Shown: positions 16,457 through 51,591 of the stretch, piece by piece | Layout: each line of letters opens with the position of its first letter | Numbering within the stretch: position 1 is the stretch's first letter | Assembly (NCBI GenBank): GCA_030429485.1 | Contig: JAUIFD010000002.1 | Coordinates: forward strand, 130 to 64,129 | Origin: Phycisphaerae bacterium | GTDB taxonomy: Bacteria; Planctomycetota; Phycisphaerae; Phycisphaerales; UBA1924 | Direction of reading: 5' to 3' | Length of the DNA: 64,000 nucleotides | Notes under the pieces: model-generated | The model's input: the letters and a program-made list of their open reading frames with translations, nothing else | The model's database searches: none | Told to the model about the DNA's origin: nothing | Program-made: the position numbers and the translations under genes

Positions 16457-16621
16457 TCAGCACCCGATCTGATACGCCGCGAGATAGGCGAAGAAGTCGT
16501 TCGTGTTGATCATGCCATCGGGCGAGAAGTCGGCCCCAAGGTCCTGCGCTTGATACAGCGCCAGGAAGGCGAAGAAGTCGTTGGTGTTGACGTCACCTTC
16601 GCCGGTGAGATCGGCGGGGCA
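16457..16621 (-). repeat. dockerin-like C-terminal module coding repeat, copy 1 of 7
   Basis: A 54 codons + stop unit shared with 27457, 28822, 29742 (minus strand) and 37550, 40172, 40886 (plus strand). Confidence 0.85.
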
Positions 16622-17062
16622 CGTGGGCTCGGCTGCCCGGACGTAGGAGAACGACCCGCCCGAGGAGCTCATCTGTCCCCACGCGGTGAACCGGATGTCG
16701 ATGTAGATGTCGTCGGTGATGAGGTGGACGACTGCGTCTTGCCCGACCGTGCCAGGTGGGTTGCTGGAGGCCCAAGTCTGCCAAGGCGCGAACGTCAGGT
16801 TCTGCCAGTCGGCCGCCAGCCCGTACGCCCACTCGGTGTCGTCGGGCCCCAGGTTGGAGTACGCCGCCTGGGTCACCGCGTTGAAGAGCCCCTGCGCGTT
16901 GCCGCGCGTGATCCAGACACTGTCGGTGATGCGGTCTTGGTTGTCCGCCTGAGTTGCGTCGGCGAACGCGTCCTTCGAGAAGGCGTAGTCGTACCCGCTC
17001 CAGACCTGCTGGGCCTGAGCGGAGGTCACGGCCAAGCCAAACACGAGCATAACGGCGCGCAT
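16457..17062 (-). CDS. secreted protein, unknown ~125-aa passenger plus C-terminal GC-terminated dockerin-like module
   Basis: Signal peptide MRAVMLVFGLAVTSAQAQQ. C-terminus CPADLTGEGDVNTNDFFAFLALYQAQDLGADFSPDGMINTNDFFAYLAAYQIGC-stop. Confidence 0.8.
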   Translation of the reverse strand: MRAVMLVFGLAVTSAQAQQVWSGYDYAFSKDAFADATQADNQDRITDSVWITRGNAQGLFNAVTQAAYSNLGPDDTEWAYGLAADWQNLTFAPWQTWASSNPPGTVGQDAVVHLITDDIYIDIRFTAWGQMSSSGGSFSYVRAAEPTCPADLTGEGDVNTNDFFAFLALYQAQDLGADFSPDGMINTNDFFAYLAAYQIGC

Positions 17063-17166
17063 GGAGTTCCTTTCGACTCGGAGTCGTCGAAACCTACCAC
17101 GCCCAGCCGGTTTGGCATTCCGCCGAACACGCTGGGGGCCGACAAGATGAGTGCTTTGGCGCGAGA

Positions 17167-17493
17167 TTAGGCGGTAATACCGGTGACCTTGACCGCGGTG
17201 TAGCGCTGGCGGTGTCCGGTCTTCCGGCGGTAGCCGATCTTGGCCTTGAACTTGTGGATGTAGATCTTCTCGCCCTTGACGACCGGCTCGGTGACCTCGG
17301 CGGTCACGGAGGCGCCGCTGACGTAGGGGCGGCCGACGGTGATGTTGCCGCCGGCTTCGCCGATGAGCAGCACCTTGTCGTAGGTGATGGCGTCGCCAGC
17401 CTTTGCGTCACCCGCGTTGATGAGGTCGACGAGGATCTCCTCGCCCTGCTCCACGCGGCGCTGGCCGCCCGACTCTTCGATGATGGCGAACAT
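17167..17493 (-). CDS. rplU: 50S ribosomal protein L21
   Basis: MFAIIEESGGQRRVEQGEEILVDL...KIYIHKFKAKIGYRRKTGHRQRYTAVKVTGI is canonical L21. ATG at 17493. The track ORF to 18072 is an upstream extension overlapping the peptidase gene. Confidence 0.95.
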   Translation of the reverse strand: MFAIIEESGGQRRVEQGEEILVDLINAGDAKAGDAITYDKVLLIGEAGGNITVGRPYVSGASVTAEVTEPVVKGEKIYIHKFKAKIGYRRKTGHRQRYTAVKVTGITA

Positions 17494-17587
17494 GGTCGTC
17501 TCCGTCCGCGCGGGGCAGGGGCGGGCTTGGATGCCCGGCTTCAGGGCCCAGGCCGCAGCGGGGCGGATGGTAGGCGCGAGCGGCGGT

Positions 17588-19759
17588 CTATCGAGTCCAG
17601 GTGTTGTTCGATCGATCCTGATCCGGGTACGCCTCGTCGGGGTCGAGCACAACGGACTGCACCTGCTTGCCCTCCGGGTTCCATCCGGTGGTCCAGGCGT
17701 TGGTGGTCGACCAGGCCTGCACGGGCAGTCGGCGGCGATCGGTCGAGCCGTCGGCGTACGTGACCGCGTAGTCCACGGGCATGACCATGTCGCTCCTGTT
17801 CTCCAGTGAGAGGCGGACCCATGAGCCGTCGGGTGCTTCGTCGACGCCGGCGATCGCCTGGTCGAGCGTGGCGGTGGTGAGGAACCACCCGCGCCAGAAC
17901 CAGGCGAGGTCCATGCCCGAAGCGTCTTCCATCGTGCGGAAGAAGTCCGCCGGGCGCGGGCTCTTGAACGCCCAGCGTCGGACGTACTCGCGGAAGGCGA
18001 AGTCGAAGCGCTCCGGCCCGAGGATCGACTCGCGGAGGATGTAGAGCCCGACGCCGGGCTTGCCGTACCCAAGGAAGCCGAGCCGCCCCTGCCAGATGTG
18101 ATCGGTCGGGGTCATGATGGGCTGCTGCTGGCCTTGGGTCATGGAGTCGGCGGTGCCGGTGATGGATCGCGAGCCGCGAAACTCGCCGGGCTCGTTAAAG
18201 AACGCGCGATTGGAGTAGATGTTGATGAACGTGTTGAAGCCCTCGTCCATCCAGACGTGACGGCGTTCGTCGGTGTTGACGAGCATCGGGAACCACTGAT
18301 GTCCAAACTCGTGGTCGGTAACGCCGAAGAGCCCGCGCTCGTTGCGTCGCCCGCGGCAGAAGACGATGGAGGGATACTCCATGCCGCCGACGATGCCGTT
18401 GACGTTGGTCGCCGCGGGGTAGGGGTACGGATAGAGCAGGTCGGAGTAGAAGCGGATCGTGTGTCGCGTCATCTGCACGTTGTCCGCCCACAGGGGAAGG
18501 CCCTCCTTGGGATAGACCGATTGGCAGAGCACGCGCGCAGGACCTTCCGCACGCTCGACTGTGACGCCCGCGGCGTCCCAGATGAACGACTCCGACGATG
18601 CCCACGCCACCGTGCGCACGTCTTCAGCCCGGAAGCGCCACGTGAGCGCCTCGGCGCCCTGCGGACGCGACGCCGGGTCGGCGACCTCTTCGGCGGAGCG
18701 GATGGTGACGGTCTCATCGGATTCGAGCGCCGTCGCAAAGGCCGCGGCCTGCGCCGGCGTAAGCACGTCTCCGGGGTTCACCAGGCGTCCGCTCGCGACG
18801 ACGATGTGGTCGCGCGGCGCGGTGATGTTGAGATCGAAGTTCCCGAAGTTGGTGTAGAACTCGCCCGTGCCGAGGTAGGGCAACGTGTTCCATCCGTAGA
18901 CGTCGTCGTAGACCGCGACAGCCGGAAACCACTGCGCAAGCTCGAAAACGACGCCTTGCTCGACGTCCTCCGTGCCCATGCGATCGGCGCCATAGGGCGC
19001 GATGTTGAACGACCACCCGACGTCAAACTCGAACGTCTGGCCTGGTTCGAGCGGGGCGGGCAGGTTGAGACGTCCCATGGTGTCGTAGGTCGCGAGGTTG
19101 AGATCGCGTCCGTCGCGCGAGGCGGAGCACCGGGTGATGCGGTATCCGCCCTCGAAGCCCTCGCGGAAGCCGAATCGCGAGCCGCGCACGCCGGAGAGCG
19201 CGCCGTCGGAGCCCTCCTTGAACAGGTTCTGCTCGAGGTGGAGCCAGATGTAGGTGAGGGTGTCGGGCGAGTTGTTGTGATAGGTGACGTGCGCGAGCCC
19301 GGTGACGCGCCGGGCCTCGTCGTCGAGGGTGGCGTCGATCCGGTAGTCCACACGCTGCTGCCAGTAGTCGGGCCCGGGCGCTCCGGAGCCCGTGCGGACG
19401 GAGTTGGCCGCGGGCAGGTCGAGCGGGTCGAACATGCCCTGCCCGATTGGGGCGGGCGCCCGGAAGCCAGCGTCGGAGGTGGGGCCGGCCATCGGAAGGT
19501 CGTCGTTCTGACCCGAAGGCGGCGGAGCCTGCTGCGGCGGGGGGGCAGGAGACGCCGCGCTGGCCGTGGCGGGAGGCCTGCTCGTGGTGGGTGCGACGAC
19601 GCCCAGGTCGGCCATCTCGGTAGGGGAACGGTTGGGTCGGGCCGGCGCAGCTGAGGTGGACTCGGCAGCCTGAGCGGTTGGCTGATCGGGGTGACGCTCG
19701 TTCGTGTTCTGGCAGGAAGCCATCCCGAGGCCGATGAACAGGGCGATCGCGATTCGCAT
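17588..19759 (-). CDS. M1-family (aminopeptidase N-like) zinc metallopeptidase, probable lipoprotein
   Basis: HEFGHQWFPMLVNTDERRHVWMDEG is HEXXH-X18-E, the gluzincin M1 motif. The N-terminus MRIAIALFIGLGMASCQ has a lipobox-like LGMASC. ATG 19759 is preceded by AGGAG. Confidence 0.9.
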   Translation of the reverse strand: MRIAIALFIGLGMASCQNTNERHPDQPTAQAAESTSAAPARPNRSPTEMADLGVVAPTTSRPPATASAASPAPPPQQAPPPSGQNDDLPMAGPTSDAGFRAPAPIGQGMFDPLDLPAANSVRTGSGAPGPDYWQQRVDYRIDATLDDEARRVTGLAHVTYHNNSPDTLTYIWLHLEQNLFKEGSDGALSGVRGSRFGFREGFEGGYRITRCSASRDGRDLNLATYDTMGRLNLPAPLEPGQTFEFDVGWSFNIAPYGADRMGTEDVEQGVVFELAQWFPAVAVYDDVYGWNTLPYLGTGEFYTNFGNFDLNITAPRDHIVVASGRLVNPGDVLTPAQAAAFATALESDETVTIRSAEEVADPASRPQGAEALTWRFRAEDVRTVAWASSESFIWDAAGVTVERAEGPARVLCQSVYPKEGLPLWADNVQMTRHTIRFYSDLLYPYPYPAATNVNGIVGGMEYPSIVFCRGRRNERGLFGVTDHEFGHQWFPMLVNTDERRHVWMDEGFNTFINIYSNRAFFNEPGEFRGSRSITGTADSMTQGQQQPIMTPTDHIWQGRLGFLGYGKPGVGLYILRESILGPERFDFAFREYVRRWAFKSPRPADFFRTMEDASGMDLAWFWRGWFLTTATLDQAIAGVDEAPDGSWVRLSLENRSDMVMPVDYAVTYADGSTDRRRLPVQAWSTTNAWTTGWNPEGKQVQSVVLDPDEAYPDQDRSNNTWTR

Positions 19760-19863
19760 ACGTAGCTCCTGGGTGAGCGGCACACGGTACCGCCAGCTCG
19801 GCCCGCGCGGGTGGACTTGGGCGGATGGGAGGGCTTTGATAGCAGCCCAACGAAGGAGCGTTC

Positions 19864-20064
19864 ATGGCGATTCGGATCAAAGCTCGCGGCGGCGAAGGCG
19901 TGGATCAGATGATGAAGCGCTTCAAGAAGCTCTGCGAGAAGGAAGGGCTCACCAAGGACATCAAGCGCAAGGAGTTCTACGAGAAGCCCTCCGAGCGCCG
20001 GCGTCGCGCAGCCCGCAAGAGCCTCAACCGCCGACTTCGGGCTGAGGGCTCCTTCGGACGCTGA
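19864..20064 (+). CDS. rpsU: 30S ribosomal protein S21
   Basis: MAIRIKARGGEGVDQMMKRFKKLCEKEGLTKDIKRKEFYEKPSERRRR is canonical S21. Length 66 aa. Confidence 0.95.
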   Translation: MAIRIKARGGEGVDQMMKRFKKLCEKEGLTKDIKRKEFYEKPSERRRRAARKSLNRRLRAEGSFGR

Positions 20065-20077
20065 ATCGACCGTTTCG

Positions 20078-20108
20078 CAGGCCCGCCCTTCGCGGGCCTG
20101 TTTCGTCT
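20078..20108 (+). terminator. intrinsic terminator-like hairpin after rpsU
   Basis: caggcccgc(20078-20086) / loop ccttc / gcgggcctg(20092-20100): a perfect 9-bp GC-rich stem followed by tttcgtct. Confidence 0.6.
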
Positions 20109-20163
20109 ATGCTTGTCCCCTTGTCTGAACGGGCGGGCGCCGTGGCGCTGCCTGTCGTGATTT

Positions 20164-22932
<2,769 letters not shown>

Positions 22933-22995
22933 TCGACGGGGCGCCACGGAACGCCCGCGACGCGGTAGGCTCCTCGCAGCAGGAGCACCACCGCG

Positions 22996-23616
22996 ATGAC
23001 GACGCTGCCGCCCCCCATCGAGGGTCTGTCCCCGTCTGCGCCGCGATCAAAGTGGCCCACCATCGTCGGTGTGCTCGCGATCATCTTCGGGAGCTACGGC
23101 ATCTTGGAGCACCTGTGCGGGCTCGGGACCGTGCTCGCGATCGGGCCGCTCGTGGACTGGATCGCCGGCTTCGCGCCGCCCGAAGACGCGTCGCACCTCG
23201 CCGCGTTCAGGCAGGCGACGACGCAGTACGCGATCCCGACGGTCTTGCTTAACGCGTTTCTGCTCGCCAACGCGGTGCTGCTGCTCGTCGCGGGGATCGG
23301 GTGCGCGCGGCGCCAGGGCGCGGTGCGTCCGAAGATGCTGCTCTATGCGGCAGTCGAGGTGTTCCTGTCGGTCGTGAGTGCCGTCCTGGCGTTCCAGGTC
23401 GCCGAGACGGTGGCCGATGTGATGCGAGAGGTCGATGGAGCCGGCGGGGTGCCCGCCCAGTTCAGCACGGCGATCAATGCGGGCGAAGCGGTCATGGGGC
23501 TGCTCTTTGCCGCGATCTGGCCGGTGTTCCTGCTCGTCTGGTTCACCCGCCGCTCGGTCGTTGAGGAAGTCGGCGCATGGGCGGCTGTGCCCCGCGACCC
23601 ATGGGATCGGGGTTGA
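22996..23616 (+). CDS. hypothetical 4-TM membrane protein (paralog A)
   Basis: WPTIVGVLAIIFGSYGILEHL..., ANAVLLLVAGIGCARRQ and AIWPVFLLVWFTRRSVVEEV are shared almost verbatim with the next gene. Confidence 0.6.
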   Translation: MTTLPPPIEGLSPSAPRSKWPTIVGVLAIIFGSYGILEHLCGLGTVLAIGPLVDWIAGFAPPEDASHLAAFRQATTQYAIPTVLLNAFLLANAVLLLVAGIGCARRQGAVRPKMLLYAAVEVFLSVVSAVLAFQVAETVADVMREVDGAGGVPAQFSTAINAGEAVMGLLFAAIWPVFLLVWFTRRSVVEEVGAWAAVPRDPWDRG

Positions 23617-23673
23617 GAAACTCACCGGCTGTGTCTTCAAAGAACAGAGGTACGCTCGACGCGGAGCACACGC

Positions 23674-24357
23674 ATGGATGATCAAGGCACCCCGCACGCA
23701 CCGCCCAACCCAGCTCCGCCCCCGGGCGCCCCGCCGACCGTCCCGGGTCCGATCCGGCGGGCCCGATCGCAGTGGCCAAACGTGGTCGGCGTGCTCGCGA
23801 TCATCTTCGGCTCGCTCGGGATGCTCATGCATGGGTGCGGAACCGCGGGGCTCTACCTCAACCTCTTCACCTCGCAGGCGATGGAGCAGCTGGCGACCGA
23901 CATACCTCCCGAGCAGAGTGACATCCTGACGGTGCAGCACGACGTCGCACTGAAGTACATCGCACCCGCAACGATCGCCAACGTGCTGCGCTTCGCCAAC
24001 GCCGTGTTCCTGCTCATCGCGGGCATTGCCTGCAACCGGCGCCAACCGGGCACGCGTCGCCTGCTACTCATCTACGCCATCGCCGAGATGGTCGTCATGA
24101 CCGTCGCGATCGGCATCGAGTGGGCGATGCAGCAGGAGATCATGTCGGCGTTGGCGAAGAGCTTGCAAGCCCAACAGTCCGGCGGTATCCCGCCTGGCAT
24201 GATGGGCGTCATGGGTGCGTTCGGCAGCATCGGCGTCATCATCAAGCTCCTGTTCTGTGCCGTATGGCCGGTCTTCCTGATCATCTGGTTCAACCGCGCC
24301 GCGGTGGTGAAGGAGATCGCGACGTGGAGACCGGCGCGTACGCTCACGGAGATGTAG
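23674..24357 (+). CDS. hypothetical 4-TM membrane protein (paralog B) with a Pro-rich N-terminus
   Basis: WPNVVGVLAIIFGSLGMLMHG..., ANAVFLLIAGIACNRRQ and AVWPVFLIIWFNRAAVVKEI make it a tandem paralog of 22996..23616. Confidence 0.6.
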   Translation: MDDQGTPHAPPNPAPPPGAPPTVPGPIRRARSQWPNVVGVLAIIFGSLGMLMHGCGTAGLYLNLFTSQAMEQLATDIPPEQSDILTVQHDVALKYIAPATIANVLRFANAVFLLIAGIACNRRQPGTRRLLLIYAIAEMVVMTVAIGIEWAMQQEIMSALAKSLQAQQSGGIPPGMMGVMGAFGSIGVIIKLLFCAVWPVFLIIWFNRAAVVKEIATWRPARTLTEM

Positions 24358-24364
24358 CTCACGC

Positions 24365-25825
24365 ATGCGCTGTACGAAGTGCAACTACGCCCTCTGGAAC
24401 ACGCCGGCCGGACCCTGCCCGGAATGCGGCGAGCCGTTCAAGCCCTCCGACTTCCGATTCCGCCAGAACGCCATCGCGTTCAGGTGTCCGTCGTGTCAGC
24501 AGGATTACTACGGCACCGACGCAAAGGGACACCTCGCCCCCGCTGAGTTCGACTGCGTCACGTGTGGTCGGCGCCTCACGATGGATGAGATGCTCATCCT
24601 GCCCACCGAAGGCGTGGACGAGCGAAAGACGGGGCAAGAGGCCAACGCGTGGGTCGCGGACGACGGCGTCTCGCGTCGATGGCGATTCCCACGCACGATC
24701 ATGCAGGGCGCGTTCTCGCCGCACATCGTCGTCGAGCGGACGCCCGAGACCAGCGGGATCTGGCCCGCCCTGAGCTTCGTCTTTCTCGTCCTTGCGTGCA
24801 TGGCGGTGCTCGGGCTGCTTCCGTTCCTATTCATCATGGTCATGCCCTTCCTGACCGGCGGCGGTGGGGGGGTTCGCGCGGCGGCCTCGATCGTCGGGGT
24901 CGTGCTCGCGCTGTTCACCGTGCCCGCGCTCCTGTTCATCGTCTGGGTGCTGACCACTCACCTTTGGCTCGTCGTGGGCGCATCAGAGAGGCCCAAGTTC
25001 CGTCGCACCGTGCAGTCGATGTCGTACACGTCGGGGCCGGTGATGCTCATCGGTGTGCCGTGCATCGGGCCCTACCTGCTCTGGCTCGCGGCGATCCCGT
25101 GGTGGATCACCACCGCGATCATCGGCCTCCGCGTCGGCACGCGCGCCCCCATCTGGAGGTGCGTCGTCGGGGGGCTCTTCTTTCCCGCGGTGGTCGCGAT
25201 CGCACTCATCGGTGGGTACATCGGGTTGCTCTCGTTCTTGTTCTCATCGACGGGGCCGATCGCGATGGCGACCGCCAACACCAACGGCGCCGCGGGCGTC
25301 TTGGCGTTTGACGCGGCGATCGGTGTTCGCTCCGGAGCGCTCCCGCCCGCGCACGCGGCGGAGTTGATGATCGGCGCCACGATCGACCCCGGGGCATTTG
25401 CGATCCGTGGCTCCAACACCAACCCGTTTACGCTACAGATCGCCAACACCGATGCGCTTGCGTTCTCAATGATGACCGCGGGCGAACAGGCCGGCGTGGT
25501 GCAGGCCGCGATCGACGCGATGCCGGAGGGGACGATCGCGCACCGCTTCGGCGACTTCGTGTTCGTGACCGATGCGGCGCCGCCGGGAAGCGACCCGAGC
25601 CAGGTCGCGTCGCTCTGGCGGGTGATCGGGGCGCTCGATCCAGAACTAAACCCTGGTGGGTGGTCGGTGATCTGGATCAGCACCCCGACCGGGACGGTGA
25701 GCTACGACCAGACCACCTTCGACGCGGCGCTCGCGCTGCAAAACCGCATCCGCGCGAGCCTCAACATGCCGCCTCTCCCGCACCCCGATGACATTACCCA
25801 CGACTCGCCCGCGGTGGCGGACTAA
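24365..25825 (+). CDS. hypothetical protein: double zinc-ribbon N-terminus, about 6 TM helices, C-terminal soluble domain
   Basis: CTKCNYALWNTPAGPCPECG and CPSCQQDYYG...CVTCG are two CxxC...CxxC pairs. Hydrophobic segments follow (ALSFVFLVLACMAVLGLLPFLFIMV ...), then about 170 aa of non-membrane tail. It starts 7 nt after the previous gene. Confidence 0.6.
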   Translation: MRCTKCNYALWNTPAGPCPECGEPFKPSDFRFRQNAIAFRCPSCQQDYYGTDAKGHLAPAEFDCVTCGRRLTMDEMLILPTEGVDERKTGQEANAWVADDGVSRRWRFPRTIMQGAFSPHIVVERTPETSGIWPALSFVFLVLACMAVLGLLPFLFIMVMPFLTGGGGGVRAAASIVGVVLALFTVPALLFIVWVLTTHLWLVVGASERPKFRRTVQSMSYTSGPVMLIGVPCIGPYLLWLAAIPWWITTAIIGLRVGTRAPIWRCVVGGLFFPAVVAIALIGGYIGLLSFLFSSTGPIAMATANTNGAAGVLAFDAAIGVRSGALPPAHAAELMIGATIDPGAFAIRGSNTNPFTLQIANTDALAFSMMTAGEQAGVVQAAIDAMPEGTIAHRFGDFVFVTDAAPPGSDPSQVASLWRVIGALDPELNPGGWSVIWISTPTGTVSYDQTTFDAALALQNRIRASLNMPPLPHPDDITHDSPAVAD

Positions 25826-25860
25826 CCGGAGCGGCTGGCGAGAGATGGGTTGCGGGTCAC

Positions 25861-27438: not shown

Positions 27439-27456
27439 GAGCCAACGGTAGCCCGA

Positions 27457-27621
27457 TCAGCACCCCGCCTGATACGCCGCGAGATACGCGAAGAAATCGT
27501 TGGTGTTGATCCCGCCGCCGGGCTCGAAGTCAGCCCGCGAGTCCTGCGCGTCGTAGTACGCGAGGAACTGGAAGAAGTCGTTGGTGTTGATGTCGCCCTC
27601 GCCGGTGAGGTCCGCCGGGCA
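27457..27621 (-). repeat. dockerin-like module coding repeat, copy 2 of 7
   Basis: See 16457..16621. Positions 27547-27616 match 29832-29901 with 2 mismatches in 70 nt. Confidence 0.85.
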
Positions 27622-28740
27622 GTCCGGGCACGCGCACACGCCGCGCGGGTTCGCGAGCGCCGCCTGGAATCCCGAGTGGACGATAGCGGTGCCCTGGTTG
27701 GCCCCGCCGCCGTTGGTGCATCCGGCGTGCGTGTGGACGCCGAGCGCGAGCCCGGTCGCTTCCTGAATGACCGGTGATCCGGAGTTGCCGCTCGTGGTGT
27801 CGGTGCGGTACCGCACGGTCGTGCCGCTGCTGCCCCGCTCGGGACCGCTGTGCGTTTTCTGCGCGCGGTAGTACGTCGGATCGACCGGCGAGCTGGTGAT
27901 GCCGTGCCCGGTGATGCGGATCGTCTCGCCCGGCGTCGGGAGCGACGACGCAAGAGAGAAGGTCGCGCCCTGCGCGTCCGCGGGATGGAGCCCGGTGTTG
28001 GAGTTGGGGAACACGCCAAAGTAGCAGTAGTCGTTGCCGACGCCCCCGTTGACGCTCTGCACGCTCGTGAAATCGATGGGGTACTGGTCCTCCGGCGCCG
28101 CCGCGACCGGCGTGCCAGACGGGGTCGAGATCGGCGCATTGAACTCGACGACTGATCCGGAGTTGGGCGCACAGTGCCCAGCGGTGATCAGGCATCGACC
28201 GCAATCGTCGATGAGCCAGACCGTGCACCGCGCGGGCCAGTAGCGGCCGACTCGTGGGTCGGTCGAGAGCTGGCGATCATCGACGACGTCGCAGATCGTC
28301 TCGCCCGGCGCATCGGGCTCGCCCGCCATGAGCGACACGATCTCGACGCTCGCTCGGCCCGCCACGCCCGCGGGGGCGACGAGCTCGACGAACACCGCGT
28401 CGCCATTGAACACCGCCGACTGGTGCTGCCACTGCGCGATGGTCACCCGGTCGAGGCGCTGCTGATGGCCGTCGCGCAGCGAGGTGATGCGGAGTGTCGC
28501 CCGCCCCAGCTGCGTTTCGCCAAAACCCGCGCGGAGCCAGGTCGCACCCTCCGCGCCGACGATGGTCGAGTAGAGAACCTGCTCCTGGTCTCGCGCGTCA
28601 AACGCAATGACCCCGGACGCGTCACCCTCAAGCGCGATGGTGCGGTAGGGGGCCGGGTCCGGCTGGATTTCCTGAGCGCCGACGATCGCGGTGCTTGCAG
28701 CGATCGCGAGGAGCGTGGCGGTGGTGAGGGTGTTGCGCAT
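27457..28740 (-). CDS. secreted trypsin-like (S1) serine peptidase with C-terminal GC-terminated dockerin-like module
   Basis: Signal peptide MRNTLTTATLLAIAASTAIVGAQE. Catalytic His in LITAGHC and catalytic Ser in TTSGNSGSPV. C-terminus CPADLTGEGDINTNDFFQFLAYYDAQDSRADFEPGGGINTNDFFAYLAAYQAGC-stop. AGGAGG lies upstream of ATG 28740. Confidence 0.85.
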   Translation of the reverse strand: MRNTLTTATLLAIAASTAIVGAQEIQPDPAPYRTIALEGDASGVIAFDARDQEQVLYSTIVGAEGATWLRAGFGETQLGRATLRITSLRDGHQQRLDRVTIAQWQHQSAVFNGDAVFVELVAPAGVAGRASVEIVSLMAGEPDAPGETICDVVDDRQLSTDPRVGRYWPARCTVWLIDDCGRCLITAGHCAPNSGSVVEFNAPISTPSGTPVAAAPEDQYPIDFTSVQSVNGGVGNDYCYFGVFPNSNTGLHPADAQGATFSLASSLPTPGETIRITGHGITSSPVDPTYYRAQKTHSGPERGSSGTTVRYRTDTTSGNSGSPVIQEATGLALGVHTHAGCTNGGGANQGTAIVHSGFQAALANPRGVCACPDCPADLTGEGDINTNDFFQFLAYYDAQDSRADFEPGGGINTNDFFAYLAAYQAGC

Positions 28741-28821
28741 TCTGACCTCCTGTGTGCCTGTTCGCTTCAGAGTCTTGGTGGTTGCTCGCTTGCTCGCGTC
28801 CGTCGCCGAGCCGGTGTGGAT

Positions 28822-28986
28822 TCAGCACCCCGCCTGATACGCCGCGAGATACGCGAAGAAGTCGTTCGTGTTGATCCCGCCGCCCGGTGAGAAATCAGCC
28901 CGCGGGTCCTGCGCCTGATAGAACGCGAGGAAAGCGAAGAAATCGTTGGTGTTCACGTCGCCCTCGCCCGTCAGGTCGGCCGGGCA
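28822..28986 (-). repeat. dockerin-like module coding repeat, copy 3 of 7
   Basis: Positions 28824-28909 match 29744-29829 with 1 mismatch in 86 nt. Confidence 0.85.
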
Positions 28987-29721
28987 GTCGTCGCCAGCCA
29001 AGAAGTGCACCGCATTGACCGCCCACTCCGCGTACGACGTGGTGTTGTTGTGGTTGTTCCACGCCACAGCCCGCCCCGCGGGCGCGAGCGTCAGGTCACC
29101 CCGGTCCCAGAGCACCGCGACCGGCGGCCCGTCCAGCGACGCCGACCCAAACGCGATCGGCGTGCCGGTGCCGATCTGATCGAAACCCCCGGTATAGATC
29201 GTCGAGGCGCCGACCGTTGCGATCGTGTTGGGCGTCGTGTTCATGGCCACCGTCGGGTCGAGGTGGATCGTCGTCCCAAGATCGCACGCGGGGCAGCTCG
29301 CCACCGTTCCCGCGCCGAGCGTGTCCGAGAGGAAGGCGTCCTTCCAGTCGTTCAGCGAGTTGAGGTTCGTGCCGCCATTCTCGCCGGAGAGGTAGAGCCC
29401 TCCACCCGCCGCGACGAAGCTTGCCAGATTCGCGCTCGCCGCGGCGCTCGGGATCGTGTTCGTCCCCGCACACCCGGTGTTGTTGGGATCCACGCCGTTG
29501 CGCAGCCAGACCACGTCGAATACCGAGAGGTCGGCGCCGTCGAGATCGCTGACACCGGCGGCCTGCGTGACCGAGATGCCGGCGTTCGTCAGCGTGGGGA
29601 CGATCGGGGGCGCGGTGCAGTACATGTCATCGCCGACGACGAGCACCTCAAGAGTCTGCGCCCGCGTGGCGGACGCCACCACCAACACCGCAAGCGAGAG
29701 AACACTGATATGTGGGCCCAT
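28822..29721 (-). CDS. secreted protein, unknown ~230-aa passenger plus GC-terminated dockerin-like module
   Basis: ATG 29721 is preceded by GGGAGGAGAG. Signal peptide MGPHISVLSLAVLVVASATRAQT. C-terminus CPADLTGEGDVNTNDFFAFLAFYQAQDPRADFSPGGGINTNDFFAYLAAYQAGC-stop. Confidence 0.75.
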   Translation of the reverse strand: MGPHISVLSLAVLVVASATRAQTLEVLVVGDDMYCTAPPIVPTLTNAGISVTQAAGVSDLDGADLSVFDVVWLRNGVDPNNTGCAGTNTIPSAAASANLASFVAAGGGLYLSGENGGTNLNSLNDWKDAFLSDTLGAGTVASCPACDLGTTIHLDPTVAMNTTPNTIATVGASTIYTGGFDQIGTGTPIAFGSASLDGPPVAVLWDRGDLTLAPAGRAVAWNNHNNTTSYAEWAVNAVHFLAGDDCPADLTGEGDVNTNDFFAFLAFYQAQDPRADFSPGGGINTNDFFAYLAAYQAGC

Positions 29722-29741
29722 GTACTCTCCTCCCGTGACGC

Positions 29742-29906
29742 CTAGCACCCCGCCTGATACGCCGCGAGATACGCGAAGAAGTCGTTCGTGTTGATCCCGC
29801 CGCCCGGCGAGAAATCAGCCCGCGGGTCCGCCGCGTCGTAGTACGCGAGGAACTGGAAGAAGTCGTTCGTGTTGACGTCGCCCTCGCCGGTGAGGTCCGC
29901 CTGGCA
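29742..29906 (-). repeat. dockerin-like module coding repeat, copy 4 of 7 (mosaic of copies 3 and 2)
   Basis: The 3' 86 nt are nearly identical to copy 3. The next 70 nt are nearly identical to copy 2. Confidence 0.85.
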
Positions 29907-31016
29907 GTCGTCGTCGGTCAGCGTCACCGCGATCGTGAGCCCGAGCGGCAGATCCTCCATGCCGTTTGCCGCCGCGGTCGCCGAGTCGTACACCAGGATC
30001 GTCTCGTCCGGTGCGAACCACGCGCCGTCGTTGTTGTGATCCGCGAGGTGGTAGAGCCTGTCGTTGAGGCTGTCGATGAACCACAGATCTCCGTTGTCGT
30101 CGATGGCGATGTCGCGCGGCGCGCCGGTCGAGACGCCCGCGAACGTCTCCCGCCAGCGCAGCTCGATCTCGAACGGCTGGTCGATGAAGCCCGAGCCGTC
30201 AATGTCGGACAGCCCGATGATCGCGTCGGAGCTCCCGCCCGAGACAGGGAGCAGGATCTGATCCGTCGCGGGGTCGTACGCGACCTCGTACGACGCGAAG
30301 ATCACAAACCCGGACAGCTGCAGCATCCGCGTGGATGTGATCCACTCGCGCACCGCGCCAGTCGCGGGGTCGATGATGTCCACCGACTCGATCTGGTTCG
30401 GGTCAGAAATGTTAACCGTGTAGAGCATCCCGTCGTCGTCTTCAGCGAGCGAGAACGTCGTGTACACGCAACATTGCCCGATCGGGCCCAACTCCGAGAT
30501 GAGCGTGACCTCGCCCGGCTCGTCCACGTCGCCATCGCCGTTGGAGTCCTGAAGCAAGTAGATCGCTTCGGGGTTGGTTTGATCGTCGAGCGTGTTGTTG
30601 TCAATGAGGTAATACCCGCCCGCGCGGCGCGGAATCAGGTCAGCCGGGTTCATCATCACGATCCCGTCGGGAAGCCCGCCCGAGAAGAAGACCGTCGTTT
30701 CGCCCGCGTCAAAGGCGTCGTGGTCGCCGTTGAGATCGGTGAGCCGGAGGATGTTGGGGGGGTCGAAGTTATCGGTCGCCAGCAGGTCGTCGGGCCCGAG
30801 CGCCACCATGCCCTGGGAGTTGTCGATCCCGAGCGTGGGCGAGGGCGAGTCGTCCATCATGAGGATGACCTCGCCCGGGTCGTGCATGTCGCCATCGCCG
30901 TTGAGGTCCTGCAGCCGCAGGATCTTGTCGTCGGTCTGCTCGGAGACGAAGACGACCGGATCGCCCGCGAAAGCGGCGCCAGCGAGGGTCAGCAAAGCAA
31001 CGGCAGTGATTCGCAT
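29742..31016 (-). CDS. secreted protein with DxNGDGD Ca-loop repeats (FG-GAP / beta-propeller-like) plus GC-terminated dockerin-like module
   Basis: ATG 31016 is preceded by GGAGAGGAG. Signal peptide MRITAVALLTLAGAAFAG. Repeats: LQDLNGDGDMHDPGEV, LTDLNGDHDAFDAGET, LQDSNGDGDVDEPGEV, LSDIDGSGFIDQPFEI, LADHNNDGAWFAPDET. C-terminus CQADLTGEGDVNTNDFFQFLAYYDAADPRADFSPGGGINTNDFFAYLAAYQAGC-stop. Confidence 0.75.
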   Translation of the reverse strand: MRITAVALLTLAGAAFAGDPVVFVSEQTDDKILRLQDLNGDGDMHDPGEVILMMDDSPSPTLGIDNSQGMVALGPDDLLATDNFDPPNILRLTDLNGDHDAFDAGETTVFFSGGLPDGIVMMNPADLIPRRAGGYYLIDNNTLDDQTNPEAIYLLQDSNGDGDVDEPGEVTLISELGPIGQCCVYTTFSLAEDDDGMLYTVNISDPNQIESVDIIDPATGAVREWITSTRMLQLSGFVIFASYEVAYDPATDQILLPVSGGSSDAIIGLSDIDGSGFIDQPFEIELRWRETFAGVSTGAPRDIAIDDNGDLWFIDSLNDRLYHLADHNNDGAWFAPDETILVYDSATAAANGMEDLPLGLTIAVTLTDDDCQADLTGEGDVNTNDFFQFLAYYDAADPRADFSPGGGINTNDFFAYLAAYQAGC

Positions 31017-31077
31017 CGGGTACTCCTCTCCCCACGCCGCCACGATAGCGGGGGGGGCGGGGAGGTCCAAGGGCGAT

Positions 31078-34026: not shown

Positions 34027-34029
34027 GGG

Positions 34030-35250: not shown

Positions 35251-35294
35251 GGTCCCGAGTCTACCGCCTCGTGCGGGTTGCGCGGCGAGCCCGC

Positions 35295-36740: not shown

Positions 36741-36874
36741 GCACTATTGTCGCACGCTGGGGCCTGCGGGTCATGGAATCTGTGTCAAGGTTTGGCAGAG
36801 TTTCTTGGCTGGCTCCTTGCCATCGCGGGAGAGCCCTGGTCCAATGGAGGGCTCACCAGCGAACGGAGAGAGAC

Positions 36875-37714
36875 GTGCGCATTCTCCGACATGCCTGCCT
36901 CACATCGTTGGCGGTTTGTTCTGTACAGGCGTCGGCGCAGCAATCGATCTCCGATCCCGAAGTGGTCTTTGACCTCGAGAGCGAGCGGGCGACACGGACC
37001 GACGAGCCCACCGGGTCGCTCAAGTCGCTCGTCCTCCGCCATCGCGGCGTGGAGTTGCAGATCGAGCGCTCGCTGAAGACCGGGTTCGACCTCGTGGACA
37101 ATCGCGCCGGCGGTCAGCGCAAGCCGGCCAGCTGGGGCAGGATCTCGCTTGATCCGTTCTTCGCGCCCGACGCGGTCGATACGTTCGTCATCACCTTCTC
37201 CGAGCCGGTCTTCTCGTTCTCGATCGAGTTCGGAGACTTCGGGGGCGACCCCGACATCGTCACGCTCACGGCGTTGTCCGGGAAGGGCGCGACAGGTTCG
37301 GTCGTTGACTTCGTCGCGACGGTCTGGCTCGGCAACCTCCGCCGTGACGAGCCGGGCTCGATCTCGATCGACGGACCGATGCGGAGCGTGATCGTCACCG
37401 GGGGCGGGCCCGACCTTGCCAACTCGCTGTATTGGGACAACCTGCGTGTCACGGTGCCGCCCCGCGTCGGCGTGGCGCTCGACACCGAAACACCGCTCGA
37501 TCCGGGCGTGGTGGACGTTGAACTCGCTCTCGATCGCCCGATGCGCTCGTGTGCGCCCGATCTGACCGACGACGGCGCAGTCGACACCAACGACTTCTTT
37601 GCGTTCCTCTCGCTCTACGGCGCCGGCCACCCCGACGCCGACTTCACGCGCGACCGGCGTGTTGACACCAACGACTTCTTCGCGTTCCTCGCCGCGTACC
37701 AGGACGGTTGCTGA
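36875..37714 (+). CDS. secreted protein, unknown passenger plus divergent GC-terminated dockerin-like module
   Basis: GTG 36875 is preceded by GGAGAGAGA. Signal peptide VRILRHACLTSLAVCSVQASAQQ. C-terminus CAPDLTDDGAVDTNDFFAFLSLYGAGHPDADFTRDRRVDTNDFFAFLAAYQDGC-stop. Confidence 0.7.
   Translation: MRILRHACLTSLAVCSVQASAQQSISDPEVVFDLESERATRTDEPTGSLKSLVLRHRGVELQIERSLKTGFDLVDNRAGGQRKPASWGRISLDPFFAPDAVDTFVITFSEPVFSFSIEFGDFGGDPDIVTLTALSGKGATGSVVDFVATVWLGNLRRDEPGSISIDGPMRSVIVTGGGPDLANSLYWDNLRVTVPPRVGVALDTETPLDPGVVDVELALDRPMRSCAPDLTDDGAVDTNDFFAFLSLYGAGHPDADFTRDRRVDTNDFFAFLAAYQDGC
37550..37714 (+). repeat. dockerin-like module coding repeat, copy 5 of 7 (most divergent)
   Basis: Same 54-codon architecture. 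Both Cys residues and both xxTNDFFAFL helices are kept. Confidence 0.8.
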
Positions 37715-37717
37715 ACG

Positions 37718-39535: not shown

Positions 39536-39634
39536 GCTGCGCTCCGTGTAGGTGTCGCGAGGTCAGGTCTGGGGGTCTTCCTGGGATTGCGCCGTGGGTT
39601 TGTGCCCATAGACTCGGGGAGGAGGATGTTAGAC

Positions 39635-40336
39635 ATGCGTACCCAAATGCTCGCGATGTTCGTCTGCGCCGGTGCCGCCCTCGGGCAGACCGGCTTGCCC
39701 GACCAGTGGTCGCCGTGGCTCGAAGCCGACACGGGCCAGCCGGCCACGCAGTTCAACGTGAGCTACACCGGGTTCGTTTGGCAGCAGGAGTTCACGGTCT
39801 CCCGCCCGGGCGTGCTCACGGCCTTGCAGGTCGGCACCTTCGGCAACGAGGGCGAGGACTTCACGCTCGCCATCCGGCGCGGCGCCGCTCCCTCAGCCGG
39901 CGCCGAGTTGTTCGCCGCCACGATCACGCGAACAACACAGATCAGTCTCGAGATGCACACGGTCGATCTCACCGGCGCCGCCATCGCGGCGGCAGCGGGC
40001 GAGGCCTTTGTGCTCGAAGCTCGGGGCAATGGCGTGGCGCCCACGAGCGTCATCGAGATCCTCGGCTCCACCGACGACCCACCGCTCTACCCGCGCCCCC
40101 TCTACTACAACGGCAGCCCCTTCCAGGATCAGAACCTGCGCATCGGGTTCAAGCTCTACATCGATCCCGACTGCGACGCTGATCTGACCGGCGAGGGTGA
40201 CGTGAACACCAACGACTTCTTCGCCTTCCTCGCGCTCTACCAGGCCCAGGACGTGCGAGCGGACTTTGCACCCGACGGTTCGGTCAACACCAACGACTTC
40301 TTCGCGTTCCTGGCGGCCTACCAGGGCGGGTGCTAG
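39635..40336 (+). CDS. secreted protein, unknown passenger plus GC-terminated dockerin-like module (tandem paralog 1)
   Basis: ATG 39635 is preceded by GGGGAGGAGG. Signal peptide MRTQMLAMFVCAGAALGQTG. C-terminus CDADLTGEGDVNTNDFFAFLALYQAQDVRADFAPDGSVNTNDFFAFLAAYQGGC-stop. The track ORF start 39182 is an extension antisense to glnS. Confidence 0.8.
   Translation: MRTQMLAMFVCAGAALGQTGLPDQWSPWLEADTGQPATQFNVSYTGFVWQQEFTVSRPGVLTALQVGTFGNEGEDFTLAIRRGAAPSAGAELFAATITRTTQISLEMHTVDLTGAAIAAAAGEAFVLEARGNGVAPTSVIEILGSTDDPPLYPRPLYYNGSPFQDQNLRIGFKLYIDPDCDADLTGEGDVNTNDFFAFLALYQAQDVRADFAPDGSVNTNDFFAFLAAYQGGC
40172..40336 (+). repeat. dockerin-like module coding repeat, copy 6 of 7
   Basis: See 16457..16621. 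Confidence 0.85.
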
Positions 40337-40345
40337 GAGGCGCGC

Positions 40346-41050
40346 ATGCAACGCATCGTCCCCGTCGTGTGCCTGTGCGCGGGTTCGGCTCTGGCCCAGA
40401 CCGGGCTGCCCGATCAGTTCAGCCCATGGCTCGAAGGCGACATCGGCGCGACACCGACGCAGTTCCAGGTCGGCGCCATGGGGCTGACGTGGCAGCAGGA
40501 GTTCACGGTGTCGCGCCCGGGCACGCTCACGTCGCTGCTCGTGGGCACGCAGGGCAACGCGGGTGAAGACTTCGCGCTGACCATCCGCGCGGGGAGCGCA
40601 CCCTCTTCGGGTGCTGCGCTCTTCTCGCAAGAGGTCACGCGCACGCTGATCGTGCCGCTCGAGGTCGAGACGCACGTCATCGATCTCGCGCCCAGCGCGA
40701 TCCACGCCGAGGCGGGGGACACCTTCGTGCTCGAAGCTCGCGGCGACGGCGCGACGCCCGGATTCGCGATCCTCATCGTCGGCAGCACGATGGATCCACC
40801 TCTGTATCCGCACCCGCTCTTCCTCAACGCCTCGCCAGGCGTGGACGGCGCGCGCATCGGATTCAAGCTCTACATCGACCCCGACTGTGACGCCGACCTG
40901 ACCGGCGAGGGCGACGTGAACACCAACGACTTCTTCGCCTTCCTCGCGCTCTACCAGGCGCAGGACGTGCGGGCCGACTTCGCACCCGACGGGTCGATCA
41001 ACACGAACGACTTCTTCGCGTATCTGGCGGCGTATCAGGCGGGGTGCTGA
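40346..41050 (+). CDS. secreted protein, unknown passenger plus GC-terminated dockerin-like module (tandem paralog 2)
   Basis: Collinear with 39635..40336 over the whole length (GLPDQ.SPWLE, WQQEFTVSRPG.LT, FVLEARG.G, DPPLYP.PL, RIGFKLYIDPDCDADL). It starts 9 nt after paralog 1. Confidence 0.8.
   Translation: MQRIVPVVCLCAGSALAQTGLPDQFSPWLEGDIGATPTQFQVGAMGLTWQQEFTVSRPGTLTSLLVGTQGNAGEDFALTIRAGSAPSSGAALFSQEVTRTLIVPLEVETHVIDLAPSAIHAEAGDTFVLEARGDGATPGFAILIVGSTMDPPLYPHPLFLNASPGVDGARIGFKLYIDPDCDADLTGEGDVNTNDFFAFLALYQAQDVRADFAPDGSINTNDFFAYLAAYQAGC
40886..41050 (+). repeat. dockerin-like module coding repeat, copy 7 of 7
   Basis: See 16457..16621. Confidence 0.85.
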
Positions 41051-42776: not shown

Positions 42777-42899
42777 GGGGGCAATGTAGGCGACGGCGGA
42801 GGGGCGAAGTCGACAGGCGCTCACGCGGTCGTTGCGCCTTACGCGGACCGTCGCGCGTTTTCTGCCCGCACCGGCCCGCGCTGTCCGTAAGCTCTCCCC

Positions 42900-48426: not shown

Positions 48427-48436
48427 CGGCGGGAGC

Positions 48437-49131: not shown

Positions 49132-49140
49132 GACAGCCCC

Positions 49141-49608: not shown

Positions 49609-49617
49609 CGTCGTCTC

Positions 49618-50256: not shown

Positions 50257-50323
50257 CACCACCTCCTCAGCCAATGCCGCAAGCCCGCGGGCGCGCCTCT
50301 CGGCGCGCCGCGAGACCCCCCGA

Positions 50324-51502: not shown

Positions 51503-51591
51503 GCATGCACCCCCTTGGTTTGTGCGTGTACGTGTTCTTGCGAGCCGACGCTCGCGCTGTGGTGGTGATCCAGTACCCGTCGACGCGCGGC

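Follow-up and report, generated by a model that had tools for sequence, protein, structure and literature searches.

Seven secreted proteins of a Phycisphaerae bacterium end in GC-type dockerin modules, a candidate docking or anchoring tag

The seven genes and their common C-terminal module

The window analysed was a stretch of 64,000 nucleotides from a Phycisphaerae bacterium (contig JAUIFD010000002.1). The original prediction described seven open reading frames (ORFs) that share one C-terminal unit, and the ORF list together with an alignment of the products confirmed the positions, the strands and the shared unit (Table 1). All seven ORFs, named here by their first coordinate, are called as genes in the NCBI contig record with the start codons that had been proposed, including the GTG of 36875, and a GGAGG-like ribosome-binding site was found upstream of five. 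In the source collection, the proteins are unnamed. Signal peptides were judged by heuristics (hydrophobicity, the residues at -3/-1, and K/R): each product displayed an N-terminal hydrophobic core, with a mean Kyte-Doolittle value of 2.05-3.1, and the candidate -3/-1 positions were occupied by small residues; K/R preceded the core in six of the seven.

Table 1. Coordinates, products and family scores of the seven tagged genes in the window
ORF	Strand	Length (aa)	Product	GC-type dockerin module	NF041540 (bits)
16457..17062	-	201	Secreted, passenger of unknown fold	16460-16621	55.6
27457..28740	-	427	Trypsin-like (V8-like Glu-specific) serine protease	27460-27621	49.1
28822..29721	-	299	Secreted, passenger without Pfam family	28825-28986	53.6
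29742..31016	-	424	Secreted, DxNGDGD-repeat protein	29745-29906	47.6
36875..37714	+	279	Secreted (GTG start), passenger of unknown fold	37550-37711	52.4
39635..40336	+	233	Secreted, all-beta passenger, paralogue of 40346	40172-40333	52.9
40346..41050	+	234	Secreted, paralogue of 39635	40886-41047	54.1

The passengers upstream of the module were compared by BLASTP. Only those of 39635 and 40346 proved to be paralogous (60% identity), and each of the other five gave no match to the others. The labelling of 27457 as trypsin-like was borne out by a match of its passenger to Pfam Trypsin_2 (31.5 bits against a cut-off of 27.6) and by its orthologues, which occur in Phycisphaerae and Planctomycetota with many tail flavours and are named V8-like Glu-specific endopeptidase. 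A Pfam scan of the passenger of 29742, which had been called propeller-like, matched no family. The full-length AF2 model of 40346 was poor (pLDDT 46), with an all-beta passenger, and a Foldseek search with this model returned generic jelly-roll or CBM-like structures only, with no cohesin among the top 50.

The module itself is a gap-free unit of 54 amino acids (C-x-x-D…GC) that is followed directly by the stop codon in all seven ORFs. Alignment of the seven copies gave 30 invariant columns and a mean column identity of 87%; the outlier was the tail of 36875 (63% mean column identity), which is 56-67% identical to the other six and the most divergent in the window. When the whole window was scanned in six frames with an HMM, exactly seven copies were recovered, at 95.8-112.1 bits (E 4e-31 to 3e-36; 110.3 bits for 16457 and 112.1 bits for 28822), and no eighth. 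The genome has a G+C content of 65-70% and so contains many spurious ORFs, but beyond this nothing was found to suggest that the tails resemble each other by chance or through low complexity, or that assembly or annotation created them. Such an origin, to which we attach practically no weight, is refuted by the seven full-length matches at 96-112 bits with none elsewhere in six frames, by the location of every match in a gene that is GC3-supported or independently called, and by the matches to the curated model NF041540 and the thousands of relatives.

Family membership, predicted fold and the cysteine pair

All seven tails passed the NCBIfam model NF041540 (47.6-55.6 bits, cut-off 29) over its entire length (positions 1-67 of 67), so the name 'GC-type dockerin domain-anchored protein', which had been suggested, was the right one and the family is already catalogued. 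The NCBI label 'GC-type dockerin domain-anchored protein [Phycisphaerales bacterium]' is carried by orthologues, including some from Planctomycetota MAGs, and a literature search found no paper that uses the family name and no experiments on the family. With the GC profile, 16,105 clusters (50% identity) were collected at E<=1e-3. The seven tails are members of this catalogued family, a planctomycetal branch of the dockerin superfamily, and what the observation adds, as submitted, is seven further proteins in a domain family with an existing NCBI name.

The module lies no more than 3 aa from the C terminus in 125 of 152 family proteins. Among these 152, the chain ends in 'GC' in 71 cases, one residue later in 44 and two residues later in three (118 in sum), the additional residue usually being Pro. 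The expectation that Cys is the very last residue was thus correct for the seven window proteins but not for the relatives, and because 47 of the 152 continue past this Cys, the covalent attachment through a terminal Cys that the original prediction had entertained is unlikely.

The structure of the module was modelled with AF2 (pLDDT 94.6). The prediction is a loop-helix-loop-helix arrangement in which, from the alignment and the model, loop 1 corresponds to residues 4-15, loop 2 to residues 31-42, and the helices to residues 13-24 and 40-52. In Foldseek, the only low-rmsd matches were dockerins (2y3n_B, 2ozn_B, 2vn5_D and 5k39_B), which superposed with an rmsd of 2.3-2.7 Å, a TMq of 0.53-0.63 and a probability of up to 0.91, the E values being weak (>=0.43) with a query of 54 residues. 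In sequence comparisons, the window tails missed the gathering threshold of Pfam Dockerin_1 (PF00404, 22.9 bits), with matches in three of the seven and a best E of 0.13, and comparison with the sequences of PDB dockerins gave no significant match (E 0.28-3). A direct Dockerin_1 match was obtained for 5 of 88 GC tails. The relatives P0007 (83.7 bits) and P0010 (58.5 bits), both of which contain tandem internal arrays of the Cys-flanked module, score above the Dockerin_1 threshold and are also top matches of the GC profile, and the protease orthologues P0237, P0256, P0260 and P0322 combine a GC ending with a Dockerin_1 match. Since the model superposes on dockerins and relatives match both profiles, the GC tails are placed, as judged from profiles and predicted structure, in the dockerin superfamily, and the duplicated F-hand fold that had been proposed is supported.

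Oxygen-donor residues had been expected at positions 1, 3, 5, 9 and 12 of both loops. In loop 1 this was found in all seven tails (D, T, E/D, N/D, D), but the loop 2 set is complete only in 16457 and 36875; each of the other five tails lacks one canonical ligand there, with Gly at position 5 in 27457, 28822 and 29742, and Ala at position 3 in 39635 and 40346. The FF and FS flavours of the tail have Ala or Pro at aligned ligand positions, so that Ca2+ binding, if it occurs, may not be universal. Within the modules, half-to-half identity was 0.52-0.71. In the comparison across genomes, the halves of one module matched each other at 62-70%, whereas equivalent halves from different genomes matched at 33%.

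The bracketing cysteines are a genuine feature of the family and co-occur in 119 of 139 C-terminal copies and, in an independent set, in 36 of 37 tails. They are the sole cysteines in four of the seven mature proteins, including 16457, 36875 and 39635; in 16457 (residues 148 and 201) they are the only ones of the whole protein, and 28822 has six in total. The first is located at position -3 relative to loop 1 and the second at the C terminus. To our knowledge, all intact classical dockerins have an N-C 'intramolecular clasp'. This clasp involves positions -1 to -3 and the C-terminal residue, and its disruption lowers stability and cohesin binding ~10-fold (PMC3821032); disulfides are not mentioned there. 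Because both cysteines occupy the clasp site of classical dockerins, the pair likely forms a disulfide, which would close the module as a covalent version of the classical clasp.

Genome-specific tails and the search for a receptor

The relationship between tail and host was studied with 38 tails from five genomes. Tail identity was 0.69 within and 0.38 between genomes, a difference that no label shuffle reached (0/2000), and the nearest neighbour came from the same genome for every one of the 38. The tails therefore cluster by genome and not by passenger. For 29742, at least 24 orthologues were found with a passenger identity of 40-53%, and their C termini either carry a tail with no more than 32-48% identity or end in some other way. 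Where passenger and tail were set side by side, the passenger was 45-53% identical and the tail 32-48%. In two of them (P0169 and P0173) a PEP-CTERM-like end, consisting of VPEP, a hydrophobic stretch and basic residues, replaces the GC tail; an HMM check of both proteins did not confirm the PEP-CTERM reading. Such a replacement points to an anchoring role for the GC tail. The passengers are diverse, with 47 Pfam families among 88, and the tagged genes occur in runs at related loci (12 tails at L003, nine at L004 and six at L006). The peptidases tagged at the loci covered include S8, M10, M43, M12B and trypsin-like enzymes.

In classical dockerins, a Ser-Thr pair is the cohesin-contact dipeptide (PMC4728124). 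The corresponding dipeptide of the GC tails takes at least eight forms across lineages and is the same in both halves of 29/34 and 121/159 modules; on this alignment, it changes in parallel in the two halves.

Within-genome homogeneity could also stem from gene conversion. In the neighbouring genes 27457, 28822 and 29742, 0.81-0.90 of the tail codons are identical, and for adjacent genes in general the value is 0.78-0.90 where 0.59 is expected from codon bias, which indicates some recent exchange. It could be, then, that the tail has no protein receptor at all. As a Ca2+-dependent and disulfide-locked module, it might stabilise the proteins or keep them soluble, or it might bind an envelope component other than protein, for example sulfated polysaccharide or peptidoglycan, its similarity within each genome being the product of conversion and domain shuffling. 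In keeping with this, no cohesin (PF00963) was detected in the 42 window ORFs scanned or among the precomputed Pfam matches of ~45 genes in L003-L006. Both ends of the window also carry genes for polysaccharide synthesis, which is probably a coincidence. However, several tail pairs have a synonymous-codon identity of 0.52-0.61, equal to the codon-bias expectation of 0.58-0.59, while their amino-acid identity is 59-85%; the protein sequence has been kept, which indicates selection and not just conversion. Moreover, the same surface dipeptide shifts in both halves on a constant scaffold, which is hard to attribute to stability alone, and an anchor-like end takes the place of the tail in orthologues. 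We give the receptor-free reading a rather small chance.

A second alternative is a role of the tail as a signal for sorting or secretion that is read, and perhaps removed, by a dedicated machine, as in T9SS or PEP-CTERM/exosortase systems; its flavour would then reflect co-evolution with that machine. The extreme C-terminal position in most family proteins, the many copies per genome on unrelated passengers and the PEP-CTERM-like end at the same place in orthologues are all compatible with this, and one flavour per genome would also be expected from a single recognition machine. The GC tail, however, has no transmembrane segment or cleavage motif, its predicted fold belongs to a module known to dock proteins to each other, and the two-fold symmetry of its putative contact residues is a feature of dockerin binding with no known role in sorting. 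A terminal signal does not account for the tandem internal arrays of P0007 and P0010, and neither the window nor L003-L006 showed a candidate for such a machine. A sorting signal is unlikely, if somewhat less so than a module without a receptor.

The best reading of the data remains the 'docking or sorting tag' of the original prediction, which is backed by the genome-specific concerted evolution and by the anchor swap in orthologues. We consider it moderately probable that the GC tails act as a common tag, folded as two F-hands, for docking or anchoring to an envelope partner that they share and that is genome-specific and co-evolves with them. Following export by Sec, each tail would fold independently, either in the oxidising periplasm or extracellularly, into two F-hand repeats of a 12-residue loop and a helix. 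Through this common tag, a wide variety of enzymes and binding proteins would be held by a single envelope receptor, and the secretome would in this way stay with the cell. Recognition may proceed through two-fold symmetric helix faces formed by positions 17-18 and by the dipeptide that precedes the loop-closing Asp, in the manner of the dual binding mode of cohesin and dockerin.

A wider proposal is possible but doubtful. Phycisphaerales and related Planctomycetota could possess a large, undescribed system of surface display, with GC-type dockerins as its enzyme-borne half. Each genome would then export dozens to hundreds of proteins by Sec, to be held by a non-cohesin, genome-specific receptor through a disulfide-clasped, two-fold symmetric dockerin, and divergence of the code between lineages (TN, FF, FS, VD/LD, PG, VQ, SQ and others) would let every cell retain the enzymes that it makes. 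The hosts of the family are polymer-degrading bacteria. Dockerin-like modules outside cellulosomes are very common. The flavours per genome and the parallel change at the contact positions offer a concrete handle on the receptor, which should appear as a protein family that co-varies with tail flavour. If confirmed, the docking tag would explain how the secretome is retained at the surface of Gram-negative-type planctomycetes, and would provide small, disulfide-stabilised and mutually orthogonal docking pairs for protein engineering.

Comparison with known systems

The closest counterpart is NF041540 (dockerin_GC), with its end-to-end match, C-terminal position and GC ending; structurally there is no difference, but NF041540 is an annotation model only, and the cysteine co-occurrence, the clustering by genome, the parallel dipeptide change and the PEP-CTERM-like ends in orthologues are new here. 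In the 'planctosome' hypothesis (Andrei et al. 2019; PMC6461901), a non-cellulosomal cohesin-dockerin assembly of a Phycisphaerae lineage tethers peptidases to the outer membrane. That model was built on canonical Pfam cohesin and dockerin matches in few proteins of Nemodlikiaceae. Many peptidases are tagged at the present loci too, but the hypothesis describes no GC-type Cys-bracketed tail, flavours per genome or large copy number, and the cohesin on which it relies was not found in the window or in L003-L006.

PEP-CTERM/exosortase systems likewise label unrelated secreted proteins, many per genome, with a short tag at the C terminus. The GC tail differs from these in being a folded helical domain, and the seven tails have no PEP motif, transmembrane helix or basic cluster and no match to TIGR02595/PF07589. 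The T9SS C-terminal domain is a beta-sandwich of ~80-100 aa, whereas the GC tail is helical, has 54 aa and matches no such NCBIfam or Pfam model. Calmodulin-type EF-hand pairs resemble the module in their DxDxDG-like 12-residue loops, and weak Pfam EF-hand matches occur in GC tails; however, position 12 is Asp and not Glu in both loops of all seven, there is no entering helix, and the Foldseek alignment is poor (rmsd 8-12 Å, TMq 0.25-0.34).

Classical enzyme-borne dockerins are mostly C-terminal as well, and their genes mostly lie away from scaffoldin genes. On this general background, two of the three differences from classical dockerins that had been claimed, the C-terminal position and the lack of a nearby partner, are no real differences. 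Type I dockerins (PF00404; for example PDB 1OHZ, 2CCL, 2VN5 and 2Y3N) and GC tails both consist of two tandem F-hands, each an Asp-closed 12-residue loop followed by a helix, both sit at the C terminus of diverse secreted enzymes, and both have internal two-fold symmetry and lineage-specific contact dipeptides; the cysteines of the GC tail lie where the N-C clasp of the type I module is located. They differ in that the type I clasp is made of aromatic, Pro or salt-bridge contacts and that of the GC tail would be a Cys-Cys pair, and in that loop 2 of the GC tail is partly degenerate and the window tails miss the Pfam threshold. The host of the GC tail is a Gram-negative-type planctomycete in which, within the loci covered, the cohesin of cellulosomal dockerins has no counterpart so far, and the passengers are proteases, oxidoreductases, beta-propellers and lectin-like domains, whereas those of type I dockerins are mainly cellulases.

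The shared C-terminal module and its genomic setting

All seven ORFs predicted to encode secreted proteins with a common C-terminal module were present at the proposed positions (Table; ORFs are named by start coordinate) and one 64,753-bp NCBI contig likewise carries a called gene for each. The gene calls share the proposed start codons exactly, including the GTG of 36875, and a GGAGG-like site was found upstream of five of the seven. Features of the predicted Sec-type signal peptides, judged by heuristics alone, were seen in every case, all seven N termini combining a hydrophobic core with small residues at the candidate −3/−1 positions. Alignment showed that the gap-free 54-aa unit reaches the stop codon in 7/7 proteins, with 30 invariant columns and a mean column identity of 87%. 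A six-frame scan of the whole window with an HMM built from the seven modules gave exactly seven matches (95.8–112.1 bits), and no eighth copy in any frame. Oxygen donors had been proposed at loop positions 1, 3, 5, 9 and 12 of both halves; this was correct for loop 1 in all seven copies, while loop 2 was complete in only two, having Gly at position 5 in three copies and Ala at position 3 in two.

The shared tail on unrelated passengers (the remainder of each secreted protein) proved real, except that 39635 and 40346 form a paralogous tandem pair with passengers 60% identical by BLASTP. No kinship was detected by BLASTP among the other passengers of the seven. Trypsin_2, on 27457, was the sole Pfam family among the seven, and the small passengers other than those of 39635 and 40346 had no homologues among the fetched proteins. 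Across 88 GC-tailed proteins, the passengers comprised 47 Pfam families with none dominant, including S8, M12B and trypsin-like peptidases, FG-GAP, PQQ and Kelch propellers, beta-helix, GSDH, PA14 and Laminin_G. The GC tail appears to be a general tag, and runs of tagged genes were found in other genomes also (Table).

The window has a G+C content of 65–70% and is otherwise occupied by housekeeping genes, namely MetK, PurM, AroC, TruB, M1 peptidase, alpha-amylase and PhoX (Pfam), together with PolA, GlnRS, GluRS and H+-pyrophosphatase, recognized by eye from the ORFs. A weak, sub-threshold match to DUF1559, a family typical of planctomycetes, was also present. Taken with the named orthologues and with loci L001 and L003, it makes a Phycisphaerales MAG the most likely source. 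The portal gene and the small ORFs that precede it, set in this otherwise housekeeping region, might be either what remains of a prophage or head-packaging genes of a GTA-like type. Each end of the window holds envelope-glycan genes (an NAD-dependent epimerase, a sulfotransferase and four glycosyltransferases at one, and a Wzy_C, O-antigen-ligase-like protein with a GT4 at the other), and their predicted functions point to synthesis of a sulfated surface polysaccharide.

Table. Positions of the GC-tailed genes, other window features, and runs of tagged genes.
Feature	Position	Strand	Observation
ORF 16457	16457–17062		GC-tailed
ORF 27457	27457–28740		GC-tailed, trypsin-like protease
ORF 28822	28822–29721		GC-tailed
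ORF 29742	29742–31016		GC-tailed
ORF 36875	36875–37714		GC-tailed
ORF 39635	39635–40336		GC-tailed
ORF 40346	40346–41050		GC-tailed
Envelope-glycan genes	1744–4142
Envelope-glycan genes	57224–64000
279-aa ORF	15612–16451	+	Directly upstream of first GC-tail gene; no Pfam/PHROG match; fails coding filter (GC3 ≥ 0.80); surrounding 16–20 kb block has the window's lowest G+C, 0.653
Membrane proteins	22996–23616, 23674–24357	+	Adjacent, paralogous by eye, no Pfam family; common C terminus '...WPVFLxxWFxRxxVVxEx..W'
Next ORF after membrane pair	24365–25825	+	Zinc-ribbon-like N terminus, weak Yip1-like membrane domain
1193-aa protein	42891–46469	+	Amidohydrolase domains in C-terminal part only; first ~1000 residues without assignment
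Second amidohydrolase ORF	46271–47818	+	Next after and overlapping 42891–46469 (ORF map)
Portal block	47854–53690	−	Six small GC3-supported ORFs precede portal gene; no Pfam/PHROG match
Phage portal gene	52152–53690	−	Pfam SPP1_portal E 8.3e-18; PHROG 64 portal E 7.5e-18
Tagged-gene run, window			7 in 25 kb
Tagged-gene run, L003 (GCA_040219655.1, JAVJSB010000001.1)	1–21437		12 consecutive genes in 21 kb
Tagged-gene run, L004 (GCA_041984565.1)			9
Tagged-gene run, L005			4
Tagged-gene run, L006 (GCA_052168215.1)			6 in 11.6 kb

Relationship of the GC tail to dockerins

NCBIfam NF041540, 'GC-type dockerin domain-anchored protein', matched all seven window proteins over the whole model (47.6–55.6 bits against a cut-off of 29 bits); the family name given in the original prediction is therefore correct and the domain already catalogued. 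Orthologues from MAGs of Phycisphaerales and Planctomycetota bear the same name at NCBI, and a literature search found no paper that uses it. Both the family name and the general idea are known already.

Direct sequence comparison with dockerins remained below threshold. The best match of the window tails to Pfam Dockerin_1 had E = 0.13 and PDB dockerin chains gave E = 0.28–3; dockerins made up 8 of the 18 weak PDB sequence matches, with both loops aligned. An AF2 model from a 12-row alignment (pLDDT 94.6) had the order loop, helix 13–24, turn, loop, helix 40–52. The only good PDB superpositions found by Foldseek were dockerins from four different cohesin–dockerin complexes (2y3n_B, 2ozn_B, 2vn5_D and 5k39_B; rmsd 2.3–2.7 Å, TMq 0.53–0.63), with weak E-values (≥ 0.43), as expected for a query of only 54 residues. 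A calmodulin-like EF-hand pair was ruled out by poor superposition (rmsd 8–12 Å for calmodulin-type pairs), the Asp at position 12 and the absent entering helix.

Searched exhaustively with HMMER, 1.84 billion representatives returned 16,105 family clusters at E ≤ 1e-3 and, at the stricter E ≤ 1e-10, 2,926. A word-index search with the 54-aa profile yielded only six short proteins, and a single genome pattern scan yielded two loci, one of which, L002 (Omnitrophota), was spurious (9.2 bits, module absent). Among the top family matches, P0007 and P0010 carry Cys-flanked tandem copies and themselves score 83.7 and 58.5 bits against Dockerin_1 (cut-off 22.9 bits). A direct Dockerin_1 match was found in 5/88 GC-tailed proteins, and four protease orthologues (P0237, P0256, P0260 and P0322) have tails on which a GC ending coincides with a Dockerin_1 match from the precomputed set. 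Given the predicted fold, the intermediates and this direct overlap, the tail is taken to belong fully to NF041540 and, as a divergent member, to the dockerin superfamily, with the window copies below the Pfam threshold. The window proteins add new, unnamed members to this catalogued family, which forms a Cys-bracketed branch within that superfamily.

Other module arrangements were observed among the relatives. P0007 (609 aa), P0010 (486 aa) and P0072 (1417 aa) have four to seven tandem internal Cys-flanked dockerin-like modules, with a short Cys/Pro-rich motif at the C terminus ('VCGPCP', 'PCPVCP'); a role as multi-dockerin adaptors is conceivable. In P0009 (2148 aa), 18 classical Cys-less dockerin repeats accompany a phage baseplate-wedge domain.

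The cysteine bracket

Three differences from classical dockerins had been claimed. The Cys bracket is real; an invariably C-terminal position and the lack of a nearby cohesin-like partner did not stand as distinctions. Both Cys were present in 119/139 C-terminal copies among the top family matches and, by loop regex, in 36 of the 37 tails of an independent set of protease orthologues. Once the signal peptide is gone, they are the only cysteines in 16457, 36875, 39635 and 40346, so in these four mature proteins each is the sole possible intramolecular partner of the other. A Cys as the very last residue is no family rule: the GC end occurs in 71/152 relatives, while 44 have one further residue (mostly Pro) and three have two. 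These trailing residues, in 47/152 relatives, argue against a terminal-Cys chemistry, for example lipidation or thioester formation.

According to Slutzki et al. (PMC3821032), every intact dockerin structure shows an 'intramolecular clasp' in which a residue at −1 to −3 meets one near the C terminus through stacking, hydrophobic or salt-bridge contacts; breaking it reduces stability and cohesin binding roughly tenfold. Their paper nowhere mentions a disulfide. The GC-type bracket places one Cys at −3, counted back from the Asp that opens loop 1, and the other at the C terminus, and its simplest reading is a covalent clasp, a putative disulfide.

Further cysteine patterns were observed. In the L003 tails, extra Cys at position 2 of the loop and position 15 of the helix come together, or both are Leu or another residue, giving two sub-flavours in one genome: a Cys-rich form ('ADCDGNG...DDxDCF', six Cys per tail) and a Cys-poor form ('ADLDxNG...DDIDLF'). 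This may point to additional disulfides and perhaps to a genome with two specificities. In protease orthologues P0224, P0232, P0279 and P0261, each half is bracketed alone ('C..D...WGPC-G-x-C-P-x-D...WGPC'), which suggests a symmetric second clasp from the end of helix 1 to the start of loop 2. Both patterns are supporting evidence for the putative covalent clasp.

Genome-specific tails and the proposed docking role

The tails were found to follow the genome rather than the passenger. Orthologues of the 29742 passenger are 45–53% identical in the passenger, with tails only 32–48% identical to the window's, and the window's seven tails share 56–94% identity on unrelated passengers. Across 38 tails from five genomes, mean identity was 0.69 within and 0.38 between genomes, all 38 had their nearest neighbour in their own genome, and none of 2000 label shuffles matched the observed within–between difference.

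Gene conversion partly explains this likeness, and the neighbours 27457, 28822 and 29742 use the same codon at 0.81–0.90 of identical residues, where codon bias predicts 0.59. One reading of the tail, as a stabilising or glycan-binding module that has no partner and owes its homogeneity to conversion, is improbable. In several other pairs, codon identity is at expectation (0.52–0.61) with 59–85% amino-acid identity, so selection on the protein sequence acts as well; the same pairs rule out purely recent duplication of the tails.

No cohesin was found in 42 window ORFs scanned with Pfam, nor among the precomputed Pfam matches of genes in the four loci with tagged runs (L003–L006). This absence is not diagnostic, because the tagged genes scatter among housekeeping genes and a lone receptor gene could be anywhere. 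The all-beta 39635/40346 passengers were checked as a cohesin-like partner; the AF2 model was poor (pLDDT 46, two-row alignment), and Foldseek with it gave generic jelly-roll or CBM-like matches, with no cohesin in the top 50. Cohesins do occur in class Phycisphaerae: scaffoldins are reported for Limihaloglobus (PMC11557425), and a cohesin–dockerin 'planctosome' has been proposed for Nemodlikiaceae (PMC6461901).

The tail is replaced in some 29742 orthologues. The more distant P0169 and P0173 have a single dockerin-like repeat followed by 'AVPEP', a hydrophobic stretch and basic residues, and P0171, P0172 and P0175 carry another double-repeat tail ('...VGDINxFVALxTGG'). The P0169/P0173 end resembles PEP-CTERM by eye, from the motif only, with no HMM match. 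Together these endings suggest that the C-terminal position may be an interchangeable anchor slot.

The mechanism we favour, and consider probable, is that the tail is a disulfide-clasped and probably Ca2+-dependent docking tag on a large, varied Sec-exported secretome, which it would tie to a shared, genome-specific envelope receptor. That the tail is instead a sorting signal for a dedicated machine appears unlikely, if slightly less so than the partner-less module. A type I secretion or RTX signal was rejected, as the proteins have predicted N-terminal Sec signals and inspection by eye revealed no GGxGxD nonapeptides.

Residues conserved in at least 90% of the 38 tails are those of the scaffold only, namely the two Cys, the loop Asp, 'AD' and Gly, including that of 'GC'. 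The most variable are positions 17–18 and the dipeptide just before the loop-closing Asp. Among the lineages this dipeptide has at least eight versions (TN for the window, FF, FS, VD, LD, ID, PG and QD, with VQ and SQ elsewhere), yet it is identical in both module halves in 29/34 and 121/159 cases. The halves of one module are 62–70% identical, against 33% for the same half in other genomes. With the family's size, the lack of any study of it and this clear recognition-code signal, what non-cellulosomal dockerins bind is now approachable by co-variation analysis. The variable positions correspond to the cohesin-contact residues of Clostridium thermocellum dockerins, Ser-Thr at 11–12 and Lys-Arg at 18–19 as numbered in PMC4728124. 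A two-fold symmetric binding face that co-evolves with one partner per genome, as in the dual binding mode of dockerins, would show just such a pattern.
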